From: Candidatus Nomurabacteria bacterium
GTDB taxonomy: Bacteria; Patescibacteriota; Patescibacteriia; UBA1558; GWA2-36-10
Assembly: GCA_020632415.1 (NCBI GenBank)
Contig: JACKFO010000002.1
Location: 185,947-226,604, forward strand
Length of the DNA stretch: 40,658 nucleotides
Direction of reading: 5' to 3'
Shown: positions 597 to 20,790 of the stretch, piece by piece
Position numbering within the stretch: the stretch's first letter is position 1
Layout: the number at the start of each line of letters is the position of its first letter
Translations under genes and position numbers: made by a program
The notes under the pieces: model-generated
The model's database searches: none
Told to the model about the DNA's origin: nothing
The model's input: only the letters and a program-made list of their open reading frames with translations

Positions 597-622
597 GCTC
601 GTGAAGCGAGCAATGGTTGCGT

Positions 623-928
623 TCATTCTCGACGCATCTGTTCGGCCGGAATGAAGTCGGGTAGCGGAAGTGAGGCCTCGCAGTCGATGTTGATGTCGGC
701 GGCCTTCAGTTCTTCGATGATTTGTCTGATTTCATCCTTTTTTGTCGAGCTGATCCCGATGCAAGGCATGGGAGTGCGTTTGCCATCGCAGGAAATCGGG
801 CAAGACCATGGTCCGTGCCAAGTGATGACAGCATCATCTTGTAGACCCAGCGTCATCATTACGGCCTCTATGATCGGAATTAGATTGTGATAGGTCCGTT
901 GGTCGACGTACAAATGGATGTTCGGCAT
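623..928 (-). CDS. Hypothetical 101-aa protein starting MPNIHLYV, second gene of the G+C-rich island operon
   Basis: AGGAGG lies 5 nt upstream of the ATG at 928 (minus strand: ccAGGAGGcaatcATG). The listed 123-aa ORF is an in-frame upstream extension that would overlap the preceding gene. The 661-720 segment counts about 57% G+C by hand. Confidence 0.6.
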   Translation of the reverse strand: MPNIHLYVDQRTYHNLIPIIEAVMMTLGLQDDAVITWHGPWSCPISCDGKRTPMPCIGISSTKKDEIRQIIEELKAADINIDCEASLPLPDFIPAEQMRRE

Positions 929-945
929 GATTGCCTCCTGGTTTT

Positions 946-1215
946 TTATCTGATCCAAACAGCAATTTGCAGAATAGTCATTAAGATCATCCATAGCGCG
1001 TAGAGCAATTTCATTCGCCAGTTGCCCTTTTCCAGGAGATTGTAAGCCGCAATGTTAGCGATAACAAAAATCCACCACTGACCAGCCTCAACAGCCTTAC
1101 CGCCGCCTTCACCAAAAACAGTGATCCACCAAGTCGGCAGAAAGCCGAATATTGGGAGGTAGGCGATTATCATTAGGAGGTTTTTACGGTTGAATATCTG
1201 CGTGGCTGCAATCAT
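946..1215 (-). CDS. Hypothetical 89-aa membrane protein with three predicted TM helices, first gene of the G+C-rich island operon
   Basis: GAGGA lies upstream of the ATG (gcGAGGAAgaaATG). There are three hydrophobic segments. The stop is 17 nt before the next start, and the downstream SD sits in that gap. Confidence 0.6.
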   Translation of the reverse strand: MIAATQIFNRKNLLMIIAYLPIFGFLPTWWITVFGEGGGKAVEAGQWWIFVIANIAAYNLLEKGNWRMKLLYALWMILMTILQIAVWIR

Positions 1216-1314
1216 TTTCTTCCTCGCATTTTTAATTGTAATGTTCGTTTAGTTTTTAATTTTTTCATAAATAACGATTTTTGTCAATAGTTAATGAGAA
1301 AAAACTTCTTTATC

Positions 1315-3188: not shown

Positions 3189-4199
3189 ATGGATTTTGAT
3201 CACTTATATAAAACTTTAGCAGATCAACCCAAGTACCGAGTCAAACAAGCTAAGGAGGCTATTTTTAAGCAACTGGTAAGCGATTGGAGTCAGTCGACTA
3301 CTTTACCAAAAGAACTCAAAGAACAATTAAATCAAAATTGTTCTTTAGAAATTAAAGGACAAATTTTTTCTGCGCAAAAATCTAAAACAACCAAAGCTTT
3401 GTTGACTTTGTCAGACGGCTTGAAGATTGAAACAGTTTTGATGGGTCACAAAGACGGCCGTCAAACAGTTTGTGTTTCTTCGCAAGTTGGCTGTGCAATG
3501 GCTTGCAAGTTTTGTGCTACCGGAAAATTAGGTTTGAGTCGCAATTTAACTTACAATGAAATCATTGAACAAGTTTTGTTTTTTGATCGTTATCTAAAAG
3601 AACAAAACAGTCGTGTCTCCAATATTGTTTTTATGGGCATGGGTGAACCTTTTGCAAATTACGATGCAGTTTTAAAGGCTATTAAGTATTTCAATGACTC
3701 TGAGGCATTTAATATCGGTGCGCGACATATTTCTATTTCTACCAGCGGTATTATTCCTGGTATTGAAAAATTGACAGCAGAAAAAATTCAAGTTAATTTA
3801 GCTATTTCTTTGCACGCGGCAAATAATAAATTGCGTTCTGAATTAATGAGGATTAATGATCGTTTTCCTTTGGAAAAATTATTAAAAGCAGTAGATAAAT
3901 ATATTCAAAAAACTGGTCGTAAAGTAATGTTTGAATATTTAATGATCAAAGGTGTCAATGACAGTTTAAAGCACGCTGAAGAATTAAGTCGCTTGATGGC
4001 CAAACCTTTGCACATGGTTAACTTGATTCCTTATAATCCAACCGGAGTTTATCTACCAAGCTCTCAGCATACCATTGATCAATTCAAAAATTATTTACGT
4101 AAGCGTCAAGTAGAGGTTAGTCAGCGTTATACTTTTGGACAAGAAATTGACGCTGCCTGTGGACAATTAGCAAATAAAGCAAAAAAAGTCGCCAAATAG
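3189..4199 (+). CDS. rlmN: Radical-SAM 23S rRNA/tRNA adenine-C2 methyltransferase RlmN
   Basis: 336 aa with the CxxxCxxC cluster CAMACKFCATG, a GMGEP motif and the conserved C-terminal Cys (DAACGQL). Confidence 0.93.
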   Translation: MDFDHLYKTLADQPKYRVKQAKEAIFKQLVSDWSQSTTLPKELKEQLNQNCSLEIKGQIFSAQKSKTTKALLTLSDGLKIETVLMGHKDGRQTVCVSSQVGCAMACKFCATGKLGLSRNLTYNEIIEQVLFFDRYLKEQNSRVSNIVFMGMGEPFANYDAVLKAIKYFNDSEAFNIGARHISISTSGIIPGIEKLTAEKIQVNLAISLHAANNKLRSELMRINDRFPLEKLLKAVDKYIQKTGRKVMFEYLMIKGVNDSLKHAEELSRLMAKPLHMVNLIPYNPTGVYLPSSQHTIDQFKNYLRKRQVEVSQRYTFGQEIDAACGQLANKAKKVAK

Positions 4200-8300: not shown

Positions 8301-8324
8301 TCGCCTAAAATTGGCGATTTTTTT
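8301..8324 (+). terminator. Rho-independent terminator
   Basis: TCGCC (8301-8305) pairs with GGCGA (8313-8317). TTTTTTT follows. Confidence 0.65.
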
Positions 8325-8388
8325 GTTAACTTGTTCTTTTCACAATCAAATAAGTCAAAACAAGAAACAGCAGCGAAAGGATCAGAAA

Positions 8389-9633
8389 ATGAACGCCACT
8401 CGTTCTTTGCACATTCATGATGTGGTTCCCTCTTTTCCTCTGGAAAGTGTCGAGGGTATCGAGGCTTACAATTGGCGGGCTTTGTTGCTCAAGGGCGATA
8501 AAGTAGTTGGCGAGCATCCTTGTTTGTATGATTACCTTACTTGGTTAAAAGAAATCGGCATCGGTAACAATGGTGATGTGTTCCCAGTGCCTAGCAACGC
8601 TCTTTATGAGTGCATTCAAGATGATCCTAATCTTCAGAGGCAATTGCGTCAGTGGATTGGTGCTAGGGGATTGCACGTTCGTTTGTTTGCCCGTGGTTTG
8701 GCTGATCAGCTTTTTTTGGAACATGTTGGCTTGTTGTCTCAGGCAGAAGGCTTCAATCCGCATTTGGATTTGGCTGACCAAGCCAATGATAAGGCTTTTT
8801 TGAGAAAAGTCTTAGATGAGCACTTTGATCCTCGTTGGGCGCCTTTTAATCTGATTGTCAACAGGCAGTCAGAAATCATGTCCGCAATCAAGAAGATCGC
8901 TAAGCATGATTGCGATTTTATCGTGGTTAAGGCGCCACATTTGGCTTCTGGAGAAGGAATGGATTTTTTTCCTCTGGAGCAACAAATGTCTGCGGCTCAT
9001 TTTGCAGCTAAGCTTTGGGCCAAGGGTAATCGGACAATCATCATTGAGGCTGGCTATCGTCACGATAGTTTCAGTACGCAGTGGGAGATTCGCCCTAGTG
9101 AGTTGAGGTTTATCGGCTTTTCTCAACAGATTATTAGCCAGGGCAGAATCTATCAAGGTAGTATTATTTCTTCTGACTCTTTGCTAAATTTGAGCCTAGC
9201 AGAAGCGACTTTGGCGCAAGAGCGTTGTCATGATTTAGCTTTGTGGTACCAGAGCCGCGGATATGTTGGCACCTTTGGTATTGATTTCATTGTTGTGCGT
9301 AGGCCAGGTCAAAAGCACGACGGAGAGCTTTTTTTACTTGAGATCAACGGTCGAGTGACTGGCGCTACTTATCCATTTTCGGTTGGTCGGCAGTTGGCAG
9401 ATCAGGGAATCTTTGAACACGCAATTGCTACTTCTAGTTGTCATCCAAAGAGAGTGGAAGATTGGCGAACTTTAGTCAAAAAACTTGGTTCAAAGATTTT
9501 CAATGGTCGTTATGGCGTGATTCCTTTTTTGCCAAATCTACTGCCCAGCAAAATCGCTTTGATGGCTGTGGATTCCGATGTTCGAGCAGCAAACTTTCGC
9601 TTGGAAGAGGCACAAGAGTTGCTTGGGAACTGA
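8389..9633 (+). CDS. ATP-grasp fold ligase-like protein; possibly a peptide or amino-acid ligase family with a pre-ATP-grasp N-domain
   Basis: ATG at 8389 with AAAGGA 7 nt upstream. The listed TTG start at 8311 lies inside the upstream terminator. ATP-grasp-like C-terminal motifs are present (GTFGIDFIV, FLLEINGRVTGATYP). The 8401-8460 segment counts about 47% G+C by hand. Confidence 0.65.
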   Translation: MNATRSLHIHDVVPSFPLESVEGIEAYNWRALLLKGDKVVGEHPCLYDYLTWLKEIGIGNNGDVFPVPSNALYECIQDDPNLQRQLRQWIGARGLHVRLFARGLADQLFLEHVGLLSQAEGFNPHLDLADQANDKAFLRKVLDEHFDPRWAPFNLIVNRQSEIMSAIKKIAKHDCDFIVVKAPHLASGEGMDFFPLEQQMSAAHFAAKLWAKGNRTIIIEAGYRHDSFSTQWEIRPSELRFIGFSQQIISQGRIYQGSIISSDSLLNLSLAEATLAQERCHDLALWYQSRGYVGTFGIDFIVVRRPGQKHDGELFLLEINGRVTGATYPFSVGRQLADQGIFEHAIATSSCHPKRVEDWRTLVKKLGSKIFNGRYGVIPFLPNLLPSKIALMAVDSDVRAANFRLEEAQELLGN

Positions 9634-13077: not shown

Positions 13078-14403
13078 ATGAAAAACAAAAATAAAAAAAT
13101 GCACGTGGTAGCTGTCGATATGGGCTACGGTCATCAACGAGCAGCTTATCCTTTGCTAGGCTCTTCTTATAACGGCATTGTCAATGCTAATCATTACCAG
13201 GGAATTTCTAAAAAAGAGGAGTTGTCTTGGCAAGAAGGGCGTCGCTGGTATGAAATCATTTCTCGTTTCAAAAAAGTGCCAATTTTAGGTAGCTTGGCCT
13301 TTGCTATTATGGATAATTTTCAGAAGATTGAGCCATTTTATCCGCGTCGTGATTTATCTAAAAATTCTTCTCAACAGAAATACTTTTATCAGAAAGTCAA
13401 AAGAGGTTTAGGTAAAGATTTGATCAAAGATTTAAATCAAAATCCCTTACCTTTGGTGACTTCTTTTTTTGTGCCAGCTTATTTTGCAGAACATAATAAT
13501 TATCAAGGGCCGATTTATTGTATTGTTTGTGATGCTGACATTGCTCGAGCTTGGGCTCCGCCAGAACCAAAAAATAGTCGGATTATTTATTTGGCGCCAA
13601 ACAAAAGAGTAAGGGAGCGTTTATTGCTCTATGGTGTAAAACCAAAAAATATTTTAGTGACCGGTTTTCCATTGCCAAAAGAAAATATCGGAGGTTTACA
13701 GCAAACTATTTTAAAATCAGATTTAAAATCAAGGATCTACAATCTTGATCCCAAAGGAATTTATCGCAAAAAATACGCTAAATTAATCGAAGATTATTTG
13801 TGTCCAGTCAAAGAAATTAAAAAGAACAAACATCCTTTGACGATTACTTTTGCTGTTGGTGGCGCTGGCGCTCAGAGAGAATTAGGAGCTTTGATTTTGG
13901 AAAAATTAAAAAAGCATTTAAAAGCTGACAAAGTAAGATTAAATTTAGTTGCTGGCGTTCGTAATGATGTTTATCTTTTTTTTCAAGAAGTTTTAAAAAA
14001 ATGCGCCCTGACTTCTTCAGATAGCGTTCGAATCATCTATGCTGAAGACAAGCTTAGTTATTTTAGAGAGTTTAACAAAATTTTGAGAAAAACCGATGTT
14101 CTTTGGACCAAGCCAAGTGAGCTGACTTTTTATAGTGGCTTGGGAATTCCGATTATTATGTCTAAGCCAATCGGTTCGCAAGAAGAATACAATCGTAACT
14201 GGTTACTAGCTATTGGCGCTGGCATTGATTCTCAAGATCCAAATTATGTTGATGAATGGCTTTTTGATTGGCTTAATTCTGGCTGGCTGGCCGAGGCAGC
14301 AATGCAAGGCTTTTTGGATGCGCCAAAAATGGGAACTTATCATATTGAAAATATTGTTTTACACAACAAAGTTCAAGAGATTAAAGATATTCAATTGTTA
14401 TAA
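13078..14403 (+). CDS. GT-B fold glycosyltransferase-like protein, resembling the MGDG-synthase/MurG-like family
   Basis: 441 aa with an N-terminal VDMGYGHQRAA motif, a central FAVGGAGAQ motif and a C-terminal PSELTFYSGLGIPII...GSQEEYN pattern typical of GT28-like enzymes. The assignment is made from memory only. Confidence 0.55.
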   Translation: MKNKNKKMHVVAVDMGYGHQRAAYPLLGSSYNGIVNANHYQGISKKEELSWQEGRRWYEIISRFKKVPILGSLAFAIMDNFQKIEPFYPRRDLSKNSSQQKYFYQKVKRGLGKDLIKDLNQNPLPLVTSFFVPAYFAEHNNYQGPIYCIVCDADIARAWAPPEPKNSRIIYLAPNKRVRERLLLYGVKPKNILVTGFPLPKENIGGLQQTILKSDLKSRIYNLDPKGIYRKKYAKLIEDYLCPVKEIKKNKHPLTITFAVGGAGAQRELGALILEKLKKHLKADKVRLNLVAGVRNDVYLFFQEVLKKCALTSSDSVRIIYAEDKLSYFREFNKILRKTDVLWTKPSELTFYSGLGIPIIMSKPIGSQEEYNRNWLLAIGAGIDSQDPNYVDEWLFDWLNSGWLAEAAMQGFLDAPKMGTYHIENIVLHNKVQEIKDIQLL

Positions 14404-15740
14404 TGAAAATCAACACGCTGCATATCAATTTATATAAGAGCATCAAAAAACCATTGCAATTTGAAATTTTGCCGGTTAATATTTTAATTGGTCAAAACAA
14501 TTGTGGTAAAAGTAATATTTTGTATGCAATTGATTATTTGTTTGACGTTAAAGGAGTCAGTGAAATTTTAGATTATCCGGAAGCAGATATTGAAGCAGAA
14601 TTAGAATTTTCTGAAGCAGAGCAAGAAGAATGGGGCTTGCCAGAAAGACGGGCGAGCTTAAGTATCAAAAATGGTGTCAGAAAATTACATTTTCCAAAAA
14701 CAATTGTTAATTATCAAGGAGAATGGCAAAAGATTTTTTCGAAAAATGTTAAGCATTTAAATTATGAAATTTTTAATGACTTTGAACAGATCAAAGAAGA
14801 TTGGCGCAGTTTTCAAAAATACAAAACGCAATTAGCAAAATTTAGAGAAAGTTTAAAAGTCCATTTTCCTAAAGTAGTGACCAAAGAAAATGCTTTGGAC
14901 ATCAATTATGATCATGCGGGAATTAAAGAGGGTCAACGTCGAGCAACAATTGATCATTTGGGCTCTGGTTTTCGGCGAATTTTTACAACTTTGCTTTATA
15001 TTTATCATCCAGAGTATCAAATTGTGATTATTGATGAGCCGGAGACTCATTTGCATCCAGTGATGATCAAAAAGCTTTTGTGGGCCATGCAAAATGCCGC
15101 TAGTGGCCAAGTGCTATTTACTACTCACTCACCATTGTTTATTAATTCAGTGACCTTGCCTCAAGTTTTGCGAGTAGTTAAAGACAGAGTTAGTACAACA
15201 GCCTTTGGTTTGCCGATTAAAAAACAACATTATAGCTACAAGCGTTTAATGCAAGAACTTGATGCTGATAATGTAGAAATGTTTTTTGCAGATAAAGTTG
15301 TTTTGGTTGAGGGAGTTTCTGATCGAATTTTATTAAGAGGTTTAATTGATCGTTTCTATCAAGGAGACAAAGACATTAAAGTTGTTCAGACCCATGGTAA
15401 GGGCAACTTTAATATTTATTTAGATTTGTTAAATATTTTTCAAATTGAATATCTATTGGTAGCAGATAAAGATTTGATCAAATATCAGTTAGATCGAGTT
15501 TTGAATGATCTGCAGATAAAGATTAATTTACGTCAAGATAATCAGAGTATCATCAATGAATTAAAAAATTATCATATTTTTGTTTTTCCTAATGGCTCAA
15601 TTGAAAAACATTACCCACAAAAATATCAGCGAGATGACAAAAAACCGATTAATGCTTTATATGCGGCAACGGCAATTACGCAAATTGATTTTAATTCAAA
15701 TCAGATGAGGCCACTAAAAGAGATTATTAACAGTTTATAA
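14403..15740 (+). CDS. OLD-family nuclease: an ABC-type ATPase fused to a C-terminal Toprim domain
   Basis: Walker A GQNNCGKSN, ABC signature LGSGFRR, Walker B IVIIDEPETHLHP and H-loop TTHSP are all present. Toprim motifs are VVLVEGVSDRILL (Glu) and LLVADKD (DxD). The start overlaps the upstream stop (TAATG). Confidence 0.8.
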   Translation: MKINTLHINLYKSIKKPLQFEILPVNILIGQNNCGKSNILYAIDYLFDVKGVSEILDYPEADIEAELEFSEAEQEEWGLPERRASLSIKNGVRKLHFPKTIVNYQGEWQKIFSKNVKHLNYEIFNDFEQIKEDWRSFQKYKTQLAKFRESLKVHFPKVVTKENALDINYDHAGIKEGQRRATIDHLGSGFRRIFTTLLYIYHPEYQIVIIDEPETHLHPVMIKKLLWAMQNAASGQVLFTTHSPLFINSVTLPQVLRVVKDRVSTTAFGLPIKKQHYSYKRLMQELDADNVEMFFADKVVLVEGVSDRILLRGLIDRFYQGDKDIKVVQTHGKGNFNIYLDLLNIFQIEYLLVADKDLIKYQLDRVLNDLQIKINLRQDNQSIINELKNYHIFVFPNGSIEKHYPQKYQRDDKKPINALYAATAITQIDFNSNQMRPLKEIINSL

Positions 15741-15785
15741 TTTTTTTGTTATAATAATAAAAATTAATTATTAACTTACACAAAT

Positions 15786-15833
15786 ATGGAACCATGTCCA
15801 AATTGCGGTGATGATCCATGCACTTGCGAATAA
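15786..15833 (+). CDS. Candidate 15-aa Cys-rich micropeptide (MEPCPNCGDDPCTCE) with its own promoter and terminator
   Basis: TGtTATAAT sits at 15747-15755 and the ATG at 15786. The peptide has a CPxCG knuckle plus a CxC pair. A strong terminator lies at 15844-15873. The unit could instead be a small RNA. Confidence 0.3.
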   Translation: MEPCPNCGDDPCTCE

Positions 15834-15843
15834 TTTTAAAAAA

Positions 15844-15873
15844 TAGCCCTGGTTAATTCAGGGCTATTTTTTT
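15844..15873. terminator. Bidirectional rho-independent terminator
   Basis: TAGCCCTG (15844-15851) pairs with CAGGGCTA (15859-15866). AAAAAA lies on the left and TTTTTTT on the right. Confidence 0.7.
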
Positions 15874-15887
15874 GTTATTTTTTGGAT

Positions 15888-16274
15888 AAAAAAATGCCGC
15901 CCCAAGGAAGCCGAGGGGCGGCGAGGTTTTGTTGTGTGCGCGGGTTTTGGGCCACGCTACGGAGGGATTTTCTGGCGACGTGTCCTCATGAGAGTCCTCT
16001 GAGGTTTCGGATTGGGCATCGAGAGAGAGGGGTCTCTCGATTTAGGTTGTGCCCGTTGATGTGTCTGTCAGTGGAGGTGCTACTATTGCCTTACCTAAGG
16101 ACAATAGTAGCTAGATGGATCGAGGATGTTCGTGACGAAGGTCGATGTCCCCAATCGTCGAAACGACGGGGTAGTTGACCTTGTGGTCACGGCATCCAGG
16201 AACCAGCATCCGAGTCAAAAACCAATTGATGGTCGGCATGCATGCTCCTTTGGATTCCGTAGTTGAAGAACGAA
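15888..16274 (-). ncRNA. Candidate structured RNA A, about 385 nt and G+C-rich, bounded by a promoter and a terminator. Family not recognised. It may carry a 42-codon ORF at its 5' end.
   Basis: The minus-strand promoter is TTGACA (16304-16309), a 17-nt spacer, then TAATAT (16281-16286). The minus-strand terminator stem is GCCGCCCC/GGGGCGGC (15896-15922) followed by a 7-nt T-run. Internal near-perfect hairpins lie at 15984-16004, 16018-16041, 16080-16110 and 16149-16171. G+C is 55-65% by hand count over 15901-16020. Confidence 0.55.
16111..16239 (-). CDS. Possible 42-aa ORF (MPTINWFLTRMLVPGCRDHKVNYPVVSTIGDIDLRHEHPRSI) inside RNA A
   Basis: aaAGGAGcatgcATG gives 5-nt SD spacing. Third codon positions are G+C-rich. 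The stop codon abuts the 16080-16110 hairpin. No family was recognised. Confidence 0.3.
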   Translation of the reverse strand: MPTINWFLTRMLVPGCRDHKVNYPVVSTIGDIDLRHEHPRSI

Positions 16275-16370
16275 TGTTGTATATTAGCATACTATTCTAA
16301 TCTTGTCAAGCATTTTTAGCGTATTGCGATATTTTTAGCTAACATTAGTTAAATTATGTATTTTTTAAAT

Positions 16371-16620
16371 AAAAAATGAGCTCTCCCAGGGGAAGAGCTC
16401 GTGGCGGGTTGTCGTGGATCTTCGGTTCTTGGTGTTCATCCAAGGTGCCTAGGTCAGCCTAGGTCAGCCTAGACGATGACCCGATGCAAGCATCTTGTGT
16501 GAACAGAACGTCAATCCAATAACCCTTGAACACTGAAAGTGTCCATCGTGTTGCCGAGGCAACTGGCCAACATGTAAGGAGTTGTAGGCCGTCAAAGAAC
16601 GTCCACAGACACGTCCGTGG
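16371..16620 (-). ncRNA. Candidate structured RNA B, about 250 nt and G+C-rich, bounded by a promoter and a terminator. Family not recognised.
   Basis: The minus-strand promoter is TTGACA (16650-16655), a 17-nt spacer, then TAAAGT (16627-16632). The terminator hairpin lies at 16378-16400 and is followed by a T-run on the minus strand. Local hairpins include GUUGC-cucg-GCAAC, GGACAC-uuuca-GUGUUC, CCACGG/CUGUGG and CUUGG/CCAAG. No SD-led ORF is present. Confidence 0.5.
16447..16472. repeat. Tandem repeat with a 10-nt unit, 2.6 copies (gcctaggtca), inside RNA B
   Basis: gcctaggtca gcctaggtca gcctag creates two palindromic CCTAGG sites 10 nt apart. Confidence 0.8.
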
Positions 16621-16626
16621 ATATTT

Positions 16627-16677
16627 ACTTTATAACAAGCTTTTTCTTTTGTCAAGATGCTTAAAAAATTGTATAAT
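16627..16677. promoter_or_regulatory. Back-to-back divergent promoters sharing one -35 region, TTGTCAA
   Basis: Plus strand: TTGTCA (16649-16654), 17 nt, TATAAT (16672-16677), serving the EamA gene. Minus strand: TTGACA (16650-16655), 17 nt, TAAAGT (16627-16632), serving RNA B. Confidence 0.55.
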
Positions 16678-16708
16678 ATAGGCAAGATTATTTTTGAAAA
16701 TAAAAAAT

Positions 16709-18765: not shown

Positions 18766-20790
18766 GTGATTAAGAAAATTTTTATTTTTAGTCTTTTCCT
18801 TGTTTTTTTAGGCCTTGCTTTTCCAAAAATATCGCAGGCTTGGCAACAAGACTATACGCCACGAGATCCAGATCTTCATTATCAAACTTATTTTGATTTG
18901 ATTAATATAAAGCCTAGTTGGTCTTATCAGCTGCAATTAAACAAAGAAGTGGTTGTGGCGGTTTTGGATTCTGGAGTTGACTTAAATCATCCAGATTTAG
19001 AAAATAATTTATGGCATAATCAAGGTGAGATATTTGGAAACAGTTTAGACGATGATCAAAATAGCTACATTGATGATTATTATGGTTGGGACTTTATTGA
19101 TAGTGACAACTGGCCGGAGCCTGTTTTGAATAATAATTATGACCGTACAGCCATTAATCACGGCACAGTAATCGCAGGAATTTTAGGAGCAATTAAAAAT
19201 AGCATTGGCGTTGTTGGTGTAGCGCCGCAAATTAAAATTATGCCTTTGAGAATTTTGGATTCTCGCGGTCAAGGAAACACCTTGGTTTTATCACAAGCGA
19301 TTAATTATGCTGTAGAGAACGGAGCAGATATTATTAATCTTAGTTTAGTTGGTACTTCTTATGACGAAACTTTAAAACAAGCGATTAAAAATGCTTATGA
19401 TCAAGGAGTAATGATTGTCGCTGCTTCTGGCAACGAAGAAAATCTGGGAGTTGATTTAGATGAGTATCCGCATTATCCAATTTGTGATTTTGATGGAATA
19501 AACAGAGTTTTAGGAGTTGCTGCTGTGGATCAAAATAAAAAACTTACTGCTTTTTCTAATTTTGGTGAAACTTGTATTGATATTTCAGCGCCGGGCTCTA
19601 ATTTTTATTCTACTGCTTATCAAAGTGATCAAGACACGGCCTTTCGTAGTTATTATAGCGGCGGTTGGTCTGGCACCTCAGTTGCCACGCCGGTGGTTTC
19701 AGCGGCAGCTGCTTTGATCAAAATGAATTATCCGCAGTTTAGACCAAATGATATTTACCAAATTATTAAAAATAGCGCGGCAAGTTTGAGATTTTCTAAT
19801 CCAAATAATTTTCAAGATCTAGGAAGTGGTTTACTTGATATTGGCGCAGCCTTGGATTTGGCAGAAAGTGTTTTTAATCAAAAAATATTTATTGTTTTAG
19901 CTCCAGACAAGGGTCTTGAGCCAAGAATAACTTTATTAAATGACCAAGGAGCAGAGGCTTCTAGTTTTTTGGCTTACAACGCTAAGTTTACTGGCGGGGT
20001 AAATATTGCTGTCGGCGATGTTAACGGTGATGGCTCAAAAGAAATCATCACCGCCCCAAAAGCTGGCGGCGGACCACATGTTAGAATTTTTGATGAAAGT
20101 GGTAATGTCTTGTCAGAATTTATGGCTTATGATCCATATTTTACCGGCGGGGTAAATGTTGAAGTGGGCGATATCAATGGCGATGGTCAACTAGAAATCA
20201 TCACCGCTCCAATGTCAGCTGGTGGACCACATGTTAGAATTTTTGACTGGCAAGGAAATTTAAGGCGACAATTTTTTGCTTATGATGACACTTATTTTGG
20301 CGGGGTAAATATTGCTGTTGGCGATGTTAACAATGACGATCAAGATGAGATCATCACTGCTCCTGCTGCTCGTTGGCAGCCAGAGCTTAGAGTTTTTGAC
20401 TGGGAACACAGAGTTATTAGTAAATTTTTAGCTTACGACGCAGAAATGAAAAGTGGCGTAAATGTCACCGTTGGTGATGTTAATGACGATGGTTGGGCGG
20501 AGATTATCACTGTTCCACAAAAAGATCAGATTGCTCACGTCAGAGAATTTAGCTTAAAAGGGAGAGAAAAAAATCAATTCGTGGCTTTTAATAGTCAGCT
20601 AAAAACAGGAGCTTCTATTATTGCTGCTGATTTATCAGGCGATACTTTGCCAGAGATTTTAGTCTTACCAAACAAAGGTTCAGCGGCTTTATTAAAATCT
20701 TATGATGCGACTGGCTTAGAAAAACAAAGTTTTTATTTGCGAGATGCAGCTGATAAAAACGGTTATCAAATTAGAATATTAAAATATTAG
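18766..20790 (+). CDS. Secreted subtilisin-like (S8) serine protease with a C-terminal FG-GAP/VCBS-type repeat region
   Basis: A signal peptide is followed by catalytic triad motifs VAVLDSGVD, HGTVIAGIL and GTSVATPVVS. Five repeats of about 51 aa then follow (F.AY....GGVN..VGDVNGDG..EIITAP...G.PHVR.F), spanning about 19966-20730. Confidence 0.88.
   Translation: MIKKIFIFSLFLVFLGLAFPKISQAWQQDYTPRDPDLHYQTYFDLINIKPSWSYQLQLNKEVVVAVLDSGVDLNHPDLENNLWHNQGEIFGNSLDDDQNSYIDDYYGWDFIDSDNWPEPVLNNNYDRTAINHGTVIAGILGAIKNSIGVVGVAPQIKIMPLRILDSRGQGNTLVLSQAINYAVENGADIINLSLVGTSYDETLKQAIKNAYDQGVMIVAASGNEENLGVDLDEYPHYPICDFDGINRVLGVAAVDQNKKLTAFSNFGETCIDISAPGSNFYSTAYQSDQDTAFRSYYSGGWSGTSVATPVVSAAAALIKMNYPQFRPNDIYQIIKNSAASLRFSNPNNFQDLGSGLLDIGAALDLAESVFNQKIFIVLAPDKGLEPRITLLNDQGAEASSFLAYNAKFTGGVNIAVGDVNGDGSKEIITAPKAGGGPHVRIFDESGNVLSEFMAYDPYFTGGVNVEVGDINGDGQLEIITAPMSAGGPHVRIFDWQGNLRRQFFAYDDTYFGGVNIAVGDVNNDDQDEIITAPAARWQPELRVFDWEHRVISKFLAYDAEMKSGVNVTVGDVNDDGWAEIITVPQKDQIAHVREFSLKGREKNQFVAFNSQLKTGASIIAADLSGDTLPEILVLPNKGSAALLKSYDATGLEKQSFYLRDAADKNGYQIRILKY

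Follow-up and report, generated by a model that had tools for sequence, protein, structure and literature searches.

What does a compact, G+C-rich stretch of about 250 nucleotides (nt) do between the gene of an OLD-family ATPase-TOPRIM nuclease and that of an EamA transporter? The question is raised by a 40,658-nt stretch of DNA from Candidatus Nomurabacteria bacterium (assembly GCA_020632415.1, contig JACKFO010000002.1, positions 185,947 to 226,604; hereafter the window, with positions counted from its first letter). Two small units lie side by side on its minus strand at this junction, unit A and, directly upstream of it, unit B, and a prediction made from the letters alone had proposed that B is an independent minus-strand transcription unit with a stable fold. 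Our analysis supports that proposal through the sequence anatomy and the fold z-scores: a tightly folded non-coding RNA is the probable product of the 250-base stretch, as judged by structure modelling. B is a plausible, unproven lineage-specific small RNA, not a conserved RNA family. We describe it as an orphan of a known kind, a bacterial small RNA gene that belongs to no curated RNA family, with moderate confidence that the RNA is functional and low confidence in any mechanism.

Transcription signals and predicted fold of unit B

Unit B has its own promoter and Rho-independent terminator, and these flank a body free of open reading frames (ORFs); the coordinates of all features are listed in Table 1. 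Both signals are present just as originally described. The promoter matches the consensus at 10 of 12 positions, and the predicted transcript starts at about 16622-16620 and ends within the U-run at 16376-16371. The -35 hexamer stands back to back with the -35 hexamer TTGTCA (16649-16654) of the divergent EamA promoter, which it overlaps, and in the alignment with relatives the flank is kept up to this hexamer, which is thus conserved flank and not specific to B. Six of the ten pairs in the terminator stem (16400-16378) are G-C pairs, and the stem is followed by AUUUUUUAUUU. Nine terminator-like sites were observed between 15000 and 17500, against 1.9 expected. The G+C-richness noted for the body is equally real, with 52% in B vs about 33% for the window. 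Moreover, the same DNA was found, 100% identical, in the Logan assemblies of SRR12358676 and SRR14234111, which are two independent samples.

The 252-nt RNA has a minimum free energy (MFE) of -101 kcal/mol, with z = -5.8 and none of 200 dinucleotide shuffles as stable; a second, independent run gave z = -6.6. The background, taken from 76 other 252-nt segments of the same DNA on both strands, has a mean z of -0.41 (sd 1.02, minimum -3.67). The complementary strand of B reaches -91.6 kcal/mol (z -3.7), the minus strand being 9 kcal/mol more stable. Helix probabilities in the ensemble are 0.8-1.0, mostly 0.86-1.0, so that on the transcribed strand the predicted secondary structure is both exceptional in stability and well defined. 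The short stable hairpins that had been read from the letters, including GUUGC-CUCG-GCAAC and the one on the GUGUUC side (16545-16527), occur in the MFE structure as well as in the ensemble. The 10-nt repeat, for which 2.6 copies had been counted, is perfect and forms the 13-bp tip of the 120-nt hairpin domain, where it pairs with itself around the CUGA loop as anticipated (GUCUAGG-CUGA-CCUAGGC plus GGGUCA/UGACCU); it contains two CCUAGG palindromes. The sole long accessible segment of B is the 10-nt loop ACUCCUUACA, which resembles an anti-Shine-Dalgarno (anti-SD) sequence (CUCCU; it contains CUCCUU).

No ORF led by a Shine-Dalgarno (SD) motif was found in B, either in the ORF list or by six-frame inspection, in agreement with the original prediction. 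The one listed frame, of 73 amino acids (aa; 16685..16464), begins upstream of the -35 hexamer of B. When it was compared by phmmer with 1.84 billion protein representatives, only spurious matches to tandem-repeat proteins were returned, weak and summed, at about 25 bits per repeat and partly across the A+T-rich promoter region. No Pfam or PADLOC match was obtained. The start of the 73-aa ORF upstream of the -35 hexamer and the artefactual nature of its only matches speak against a protein-coding gene or pseudogene remnant.

The search of Rfam that had been proposed for B returned no known family. The Rfam 15 models include 6S RNA (RF00013), the bacterial signal recognition particle (SRP) RNA, RNase P, transfer-messenger RNA (tmRNA), riboswitches, ribozymes and known small RNAs; none of them matched anywhere in the window at gathering thresholds, and none matched inside B at E<=10, whether in a 1.1-kb scan or with B alone and the laxest filters. 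ARAGORN found no tRNA or tmRNA in the window. Three further candidates were tried and rejected. For a retron msr-msd or another non-coding RNA associated with a reverse transcriptase, the nine ORFs scanned around B did not include such an enzyme; they cover both flanking genes and comprise, among others, the DUF6938, OLD-family ATPase-TOPRIM, EamA, GH42-like and S8 peptidase genes. For a type III antitoxin (ToxI-like), the repeat has 2.6 copies of 10 nt vs the expected units of about 30-40 nt, and no protein or nuclease toxin gene lies downstream on the strand of B. Finally, as a cluster of CCTAGG restriction sites B has just two exact sites, and the count over the window is ordinary.

Table 1. 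Positions of units A and B and of their parts in the window
Feature	Coordinates	Strand	Details
Unit B, predicted transcript	16371..16622	-	about 250 nt; start inferred from the -10 hexamer
Unit B promoter	16627..16655	-	-35 TTGACA (16655-16650), 17-nt spacer, -10 TAAAGT (16632-16627)
5′-terminal hairpin	16602..16621	-	UCCACGGA-CGUG-UCUGUGGA, 8 bp, from the predicted 5′ end; mean pair probability 0.90
Hairpin GGCC...GGCC with exposed loop	16565..16590	-	10-nt loop ACUCCUUACA (16582-16573); unpaired probability 0.97-0.99
Hairpin GUUGC-CUCG-GCAAC	16550..16563	-	pair probability 0.99
Hairpin UGGACACU-UUC-AGUGUUCA	16527..16545	-	pair probability 0.95
Long irregular hairpin domain	16406..16525	-	120 nt, closed by GGGUU/AACCC; helix probabilities mostly 0.86-1.0
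Perfect tandem repeat	16447..16472	-	10-nt unit, 2.6 copies, 100% identical; AGGCUGACCU on the RNA
Intrinsic terminator of unit B	16371..16400	-	10-bp stem GAGCUCUUCC/GGGAGAGCUC, 3-nt loop, then AUUUUUU; pair probability 0.99
Palindrome-like motif upstream of the unit A promoter	16330..16351	-	TAACTAATGTTAGCTAAAAAT; TAACTAATGTTAGCTAA in the window
Unit A	15890..16309	-	promoter 16309-16281, SD AAAGGAG, 42-aa ORF 16239-16111, G+C-rich tail of about 200 nt, terminator about 15925-15900

The OLD/EamA junction and its variable array

The closest named homologs of the EamA transporter of the window are from Komeilibacteria (Patescibacteria, or Candidate Phyla Radiation, CPR). The EamA loci of relatives, designated here by L numbers, were obtained by exact-protein look-ups and one scan of GTDB genomes, and percent values given with them are EamA identities. 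The neighbourhood in the window consists of ordinary genes: typA/bipA, a radical-SAM gene, YkuD, a trmB-like gene, DUF6938, the OLD-family ATPase-TOPRIM nuclease, EamA, a GH42-like gene and an S8 peptidase. Among 40 loci, about two dozen have the gene upstream of EamA, usually OLD, at most 25 nt from it, and the junction is free of units in the closest relatives (L004, 84%; L019, 82%; L005 and L009, 81%; L007, 73%). In about ten genomes, 1-5 compact units are located at exactly the OLD/EamA junction, on the strand opposite to both genes. We counted four in L011 (75%), five in the species of L020 and L055 (71%), one in the species of L012-L018 (72%) and one in L062 (72%), and the distant loci L026, L040, L046, L053 and L054 (62-45%) have one unit each.

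Each unit of these arrays consists of a G+C-rich body between a near-perfect TTGACA-17-TATAAT promoter and an intrinsic terminator. Successive units are joined terminator to promoter in a stereotyped way (...TTTTTTATTGACAAAA...), the T-run of one being fused to the -35 hexamer of the next. The units are not paralogs of one another. Some carry small SD-led peptides, for example one of 42 aa (MKRLLIPPQIKMIV...) in L020 and L012; the peptides of the sister cassettes span 8-42 aa, and one of them starts at UUG. Others are free of ORFs (u3 of L011, u-c and u-d of L020). On these arrays, Rfam gave just one terminator-like match, below threshold.

Unit A is a member of the oldest unit family at this junction. 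The palindrome-like motif ahead of it corresponds to GCTAATATTAGC(C), which is present ahead of all A-type units in relatives; it is followed in the A-type architecture by a consensus promoter, a strong SD, a short ORF and a long G+C-rich tail. All eight A-type units are mutually linked by nhmmer, and an element CCUCCGUAG recurs among them, in unit A of the window with the potential to pair with the 5′ CUACGG. The 42-aa ORF of A has orthologs in three relatives, L011, L020 and L062 (BLASTP E = 5e-7 for one pair), with synonymous codon replacements within the conserved blocks INW[FL]LTR and IDL[RA][HY]EHP. Judged by these sequence features, A is at least partly an mRNA and not purely a structured RNA. 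The claim of two adjacent structured RNAs thus holds for B, by its fold z-scores, but not for A, with its SD-led ORF, orthologs and synonymous changes.

B is located between the palindrome of A and the EamA promoter, as an extra unit seen in this species only. Homology with relatives runs from EamA through the -35 hexamer and is found again directly after the U-run of the B terminator, where the palindrome marks its return. The two small units are indeed present in a protein-dense genome, as originally pointed out; what had seemed unusual about them is explained by the junction, a hot spot with variable unit arrays in several Komeilibacteria and Parcubacteria. We had first read A and B as one foreign insertion, the pair being absent from the 84-73% relatives, and rejected this idea because relatives with as little as 45% EamA identity have A-type units at this very junction.

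The search for relatives of B covered the syntenic loci, the loci anchored on A and smaller collections, while the scans of GTDB genomes and JGI metagenomes were made with synteny and A-peptide queries and not with B; it is within this scope that we call B an orphan. With nhmmer (also with --max), the 63 loci, about 390 kb in all, yielded identical copies only. A covariance model built from the 218-nt core of B and its MFE structure recovered B alone from the window and 41 representative loci (327 kb). No match to phages and plasmids was obtained for A and B by blastn in "distant" mode, and nothing was found in scans of viral contigs with two B patterns, a six-seed translated query of B and an A-peptide profile. 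The window contains no further copy of B or A and no similarity between the two. An all-against-all nhmmer comparison did not link B to any A-type unit, and the idea that B is a derived A-type unit was dropped along with two resemblances seen by eye (AUCCAC...AACCC; GAUGCUU...CUAGG), which are not significant. A-type units were present in at least nine other genomes and B in none of these, so the co-occurrence of A and B that the original prediction wished to see examined does not hold. Nor were conservation and covariation outside this genome, on which that prediction had staked itself, found in the loci searched, and to that extent the result goes against it: the copies of B are all from the same species and 100% identical, with no compensatory base changes among them.

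As a locus, the junction invites comparison with integron-type gene-cassette arrays, in which a variable number of short unrelated modules stands at a fixed site with stereotyped junctions. The fixed chromosomal site, the variable set of short unrelated modules and the stereotyped junctions are all found at OLD/EamA, as an analogy of the locus only. Unlike integron cassettes, each unit here has its own promoter and terminator, and no integrase or attC-like site was seen.

Several minor observations concern the same junction and its surroundings. In L022, three copies of a hairpin resembling repetitive extragenic palindromes (CCTCCCGC(G/T)GCGCGGGAGG) occupy the OLD/EamA junction (3340-3470) in place of promoter-terminator units. 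In the window, the DUF6938 gene and the short (445-aa) OLD-family ATPase-TOPRIM gene (13078-15740, plus strand) overlap by ATGA, and the two adjoin EamA in most of the relatives fetched, distant ones included. They behave as core genes and not as a mobile defence island, despite matches of the nuclease to the PADLOC models Old, GajA and AriA. Upstream of the DUF6938 gene of L007, a 52-aa fragment (1523-1681) has a weak match to IS200/IS605 Y1 transposase, with no counterpart seen in the window. Finally, a cysteine-rich micro-ORF of 15 aa (MEPCPNCGDDPCTCE) was mapped between the OLD gene and the array (15786-15833, plus strand), with a promoter at 15727-15755 and a bidirectional terminator at 15838-15872. 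It is conserved as MEPCADCGNDPCSCE in L004 and MELCPECGNDPCTCEE in L007, is also found in L011, L012 and L062, and is absent in L005. From its sequence (CxxC...CxC), this looks like a real micro-protein gene missed by gene callers.

Possible function of unit B

Our preferred reading, to which we give a little less than an even chance, is that B is a self-contained, lineage-specific non-coding RNA gene of about 250 nt, one cassette in the variable OLD/EamA array, whose product is a trans-acting small RNA (sRNA) that works through its loop. B would be transcribed and would act in trans as a regulatory sRNA, with the single exposed 10-nt loop as the most likely pairing site. The loop is similar to the 3′ end of 16S rRNA and could pair with ribosome-binding sites of the AAGGAG type. 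The targets would be the few SD-led messages of the genome, in the first place the small ORF (sORF) of the adjacent unit A, and their translation would be limited. The 120-nt hairpin with its repeat tip and the 5′ hairpin may serve mainly in RNA stabilisation or protein binding.

SD-led messages are indeed rare here: an SD-like motif within 25 nt upstream was found for one of the 35 ORFs of the window, and strong, conserved SDs are those of the array sORFs and of a 101-aa gene (928..626). As far as sequence can tell, translation initiation here seems to fall into two classes. Some Parcubacteria have no anti-SD in their 16S rRNA (PMC9297842). The three ORF-less units that immediately precede an A-type unit (B, u3 of L011 and u-d of L020) all expose CUCC with an unpaired probability >0.9, and the base or bases after CUCC complement those before the GGAG of the neighbouring A sORF (by reading, UU/AA in the window, G/C in L011 and U/A in L020). 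The exposed CUCC with matching flanking bases suggests an anti-SD-like riboregulator of the rare SD-led messages.

Among known systems, the closest analogy to B is offered by bacterial sRNAs that stand alone, act in trans and have a pyrimidine-rich seed loop. RsaE/RoxS of Firmicutes and LhrC1-5 of Listeria are trans-acting sRNAs whose exposed C/U-rich loops mask Shine-Dalgarno sites, and some of their loci are tandem, each copy with its own promoter and terminator. B shares with them a sigma-70-type promoter, an intrinsic terminator, a multi-hairpin fold, the lack of an ORF and one accessible pyrimidine-rich loop, in a tandem series of self-contained units. It differs from them in having no homology to any Rfam sRNA, either in sequence or in structure, and in its length of 250 nt, longer than most; moreover, the array is not made up of paralogs, and few genes are SD-led in the host of B, a CPR bacterium. 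Almost nothing is known of regulatory RNAs in the CPR, and B, if it is expressed, would be among the first candidates for a trans-acting sRNA in a Komeilibacterium.

Several results weigh against a trans-acting sRNA. B has no relatives beyond same-species copies in the syntenic and A-anchored loci, viral contigs, phages and plasmids, and so no support from conservation or covariation. The predicted pairing of B with A is just 5-6 bp. Against the translation-initiation region of A, the local duplex of B has an energy of -19.3 kcal/mol, which equals the shuffle mean, 50 of 100 shuffled B sequences doing as well; the same test gave 49/100 and 7/100 shuffles for the pairs of L011 and L020, respectively, and over the whole RNAs the duplex energy of B and A is no better than that of shuffles. 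The pattern of CUCC and its flanking bases comes from three genomes and was noticed post hoc, and A-type units without an sRNA-like unit upstream are found in L062, L026, L040, L046, L053 and L054. In addition, the -10 hexamer TAAAGT of B is weaker than the perfect TATAAT of the sister units and is the weakest in the array, and the perfect, recently duplicated 10-nt repeat could equally be compatible with weak constraint.

These last points are shared by the best-surviving alternative, in which B is a functionless or decaying cassette, either a recent gain at a hot spot of recombination or an sORF unit that has lost its ORF, with any RNA made from it being without a role. B occurs in one species and is absent from the closest relatives (84-81% EamA identity), at a locus that gains and loses units freely and where L062 has a seemingly gutted unit (promoter, about 45 nt and T-run); the weak -10 hexamer fits this picture, and the perfect tandem duplication suggests recent slippage. 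However, a segment of 52% G+C whose z is about -6 and whose helices are almost certain would not be expected to persist in a background of 33% G+C if it were unconstrained, the promoter and the strong terminator are both intact, and the sequence of B is identical in the two independent samples. We consider this reading rather unlikely, and B taken alone is an orphan not yet separable from a short-lived cassette.

A bolder version of the trans-acting sRNA, which is unlikely and should be taken as speculative, would make B a module of an undescribed CPR accessory locus. This would be a hot spot anchored on the old sORF/RNA unit convergent with the OLD nuclease gene, which gains, swaps and loses self-contained, highly expressed sRNA or micro-peptide cassettes via the terminator/-35 junctions, the ORF-less cassettes being anti-SD-like riboregulators of the SD-led ones, in organisms with hardly any other use of Shine-Dalgarno initiation. 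Whatever the role of B, the array locus is of wider interest than B itself, with strain-variable mini transcription units that carry SD-led micro-ORFs next to ordinary genes without an SD, and it makes a testable system for the evolution and regulation of accessory small genes in tiny-genome symbionts.

It is improbable that B is instead the mRNA of a tiny peptide, either of a 16-codon UUG frame (TFCSHKMLASGHRLG) located 8 nt after AAGGG or of a 20-aa frame (MLASCLGNTMDTFSVQGLLD). Both frames are open in B, and the sister cassettes do encode peptides in this size range, one with a UUG start. However, neither frame is preceded by a GGAG-type SD, vs every sister sORF, which has one; the AAGGG is sequestered in the GGGUU/AACCC helix, and no homolog of the peptides was found in the units or databases searched.

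Quite improbable, too, is that B is an antitoxin or dedicated antisense regulator of A that pairs extensively with its mRNA, as in a type I toxin-antitoxin system. The loci Ibs/Sib, Ldr/Rdl, hok/sok and AapA/IsoA are of this type, with strain-variable tandem intergenic copies. B has A as its neighbour on the same strand, the small SD-led ORF of A is part of a long and highly structured mRNA (to the 5′ end of which CCUCCGUAG can pair), B exposes its CUCCUU loop, and SD-led ORFs on long folded mRNAs beside ORF-less RNAs, with a patchy distribution among close relatives, are a likeness to such arrays. However, B and A lack the extended complementarity (about 18 nt or more) that defines these systems and are co-directional, not antisense; the best local duplex does not exceed the shuffle mean, and an 11-nt inverted match is at chance level. 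Furthermore, the A peptides are not clearly hydrophobic, that of the window not being a typical hydrophobic toxin, and A-type units exist without B in nine genomes.

The weakest candidates have very little in their favour; in them, B is either a diverged copy of a universal housekeeping RNA (6S, SRP, RNase P or tmRNA) or works at the DNA level, for instance as a set of CCTAGG sites one helical turn apart to which a protein binds. B is an independent transcription unit in the size range of 6S and SRP RNA, has a high G+C content relative to the genome and contains a repeat of 10-bp period with palindromic hexamers, but it gave no covariance-model match in Rfam even with relaxed filters and nothing with ARAGORN, its multi-hairpin fold is not the 6S-like rod with a central bubble because its ends are not paired, a housekeeping RNA would be expected in relatives and none of the related loci has B, and there are two exact CCTAGG sites only.

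Other features of the window

A second G+C-rich island (600-1220, minus strand, 45-52% G+C) contains two SD-led small ORFs and its own terminator, with no Pfam match. The first ORF (1215-946) is predicted to encode an 89-aa membrane protein and did not appear among the genes called at the loci of relatives. The second (928-623) is the 101-aa gene mentioned above, which is kept beside typA in Komeilibacteria relatives (P0127-P0131), where its SD is conserved as well. Elsewhere, a 440-aa ORF with a TTG start (8311-9633, plus strand) has a weak ATP-grasp match and a G+C content of 44-46% vs 33% for the genome. Finally, a 153-nt tandem repeat of 2.4 copies with 72% matches (19992-20363, plus strand) was mapped within the S8 peptidase gene, where it corresponds to the FG-GAP repeats of the protein.

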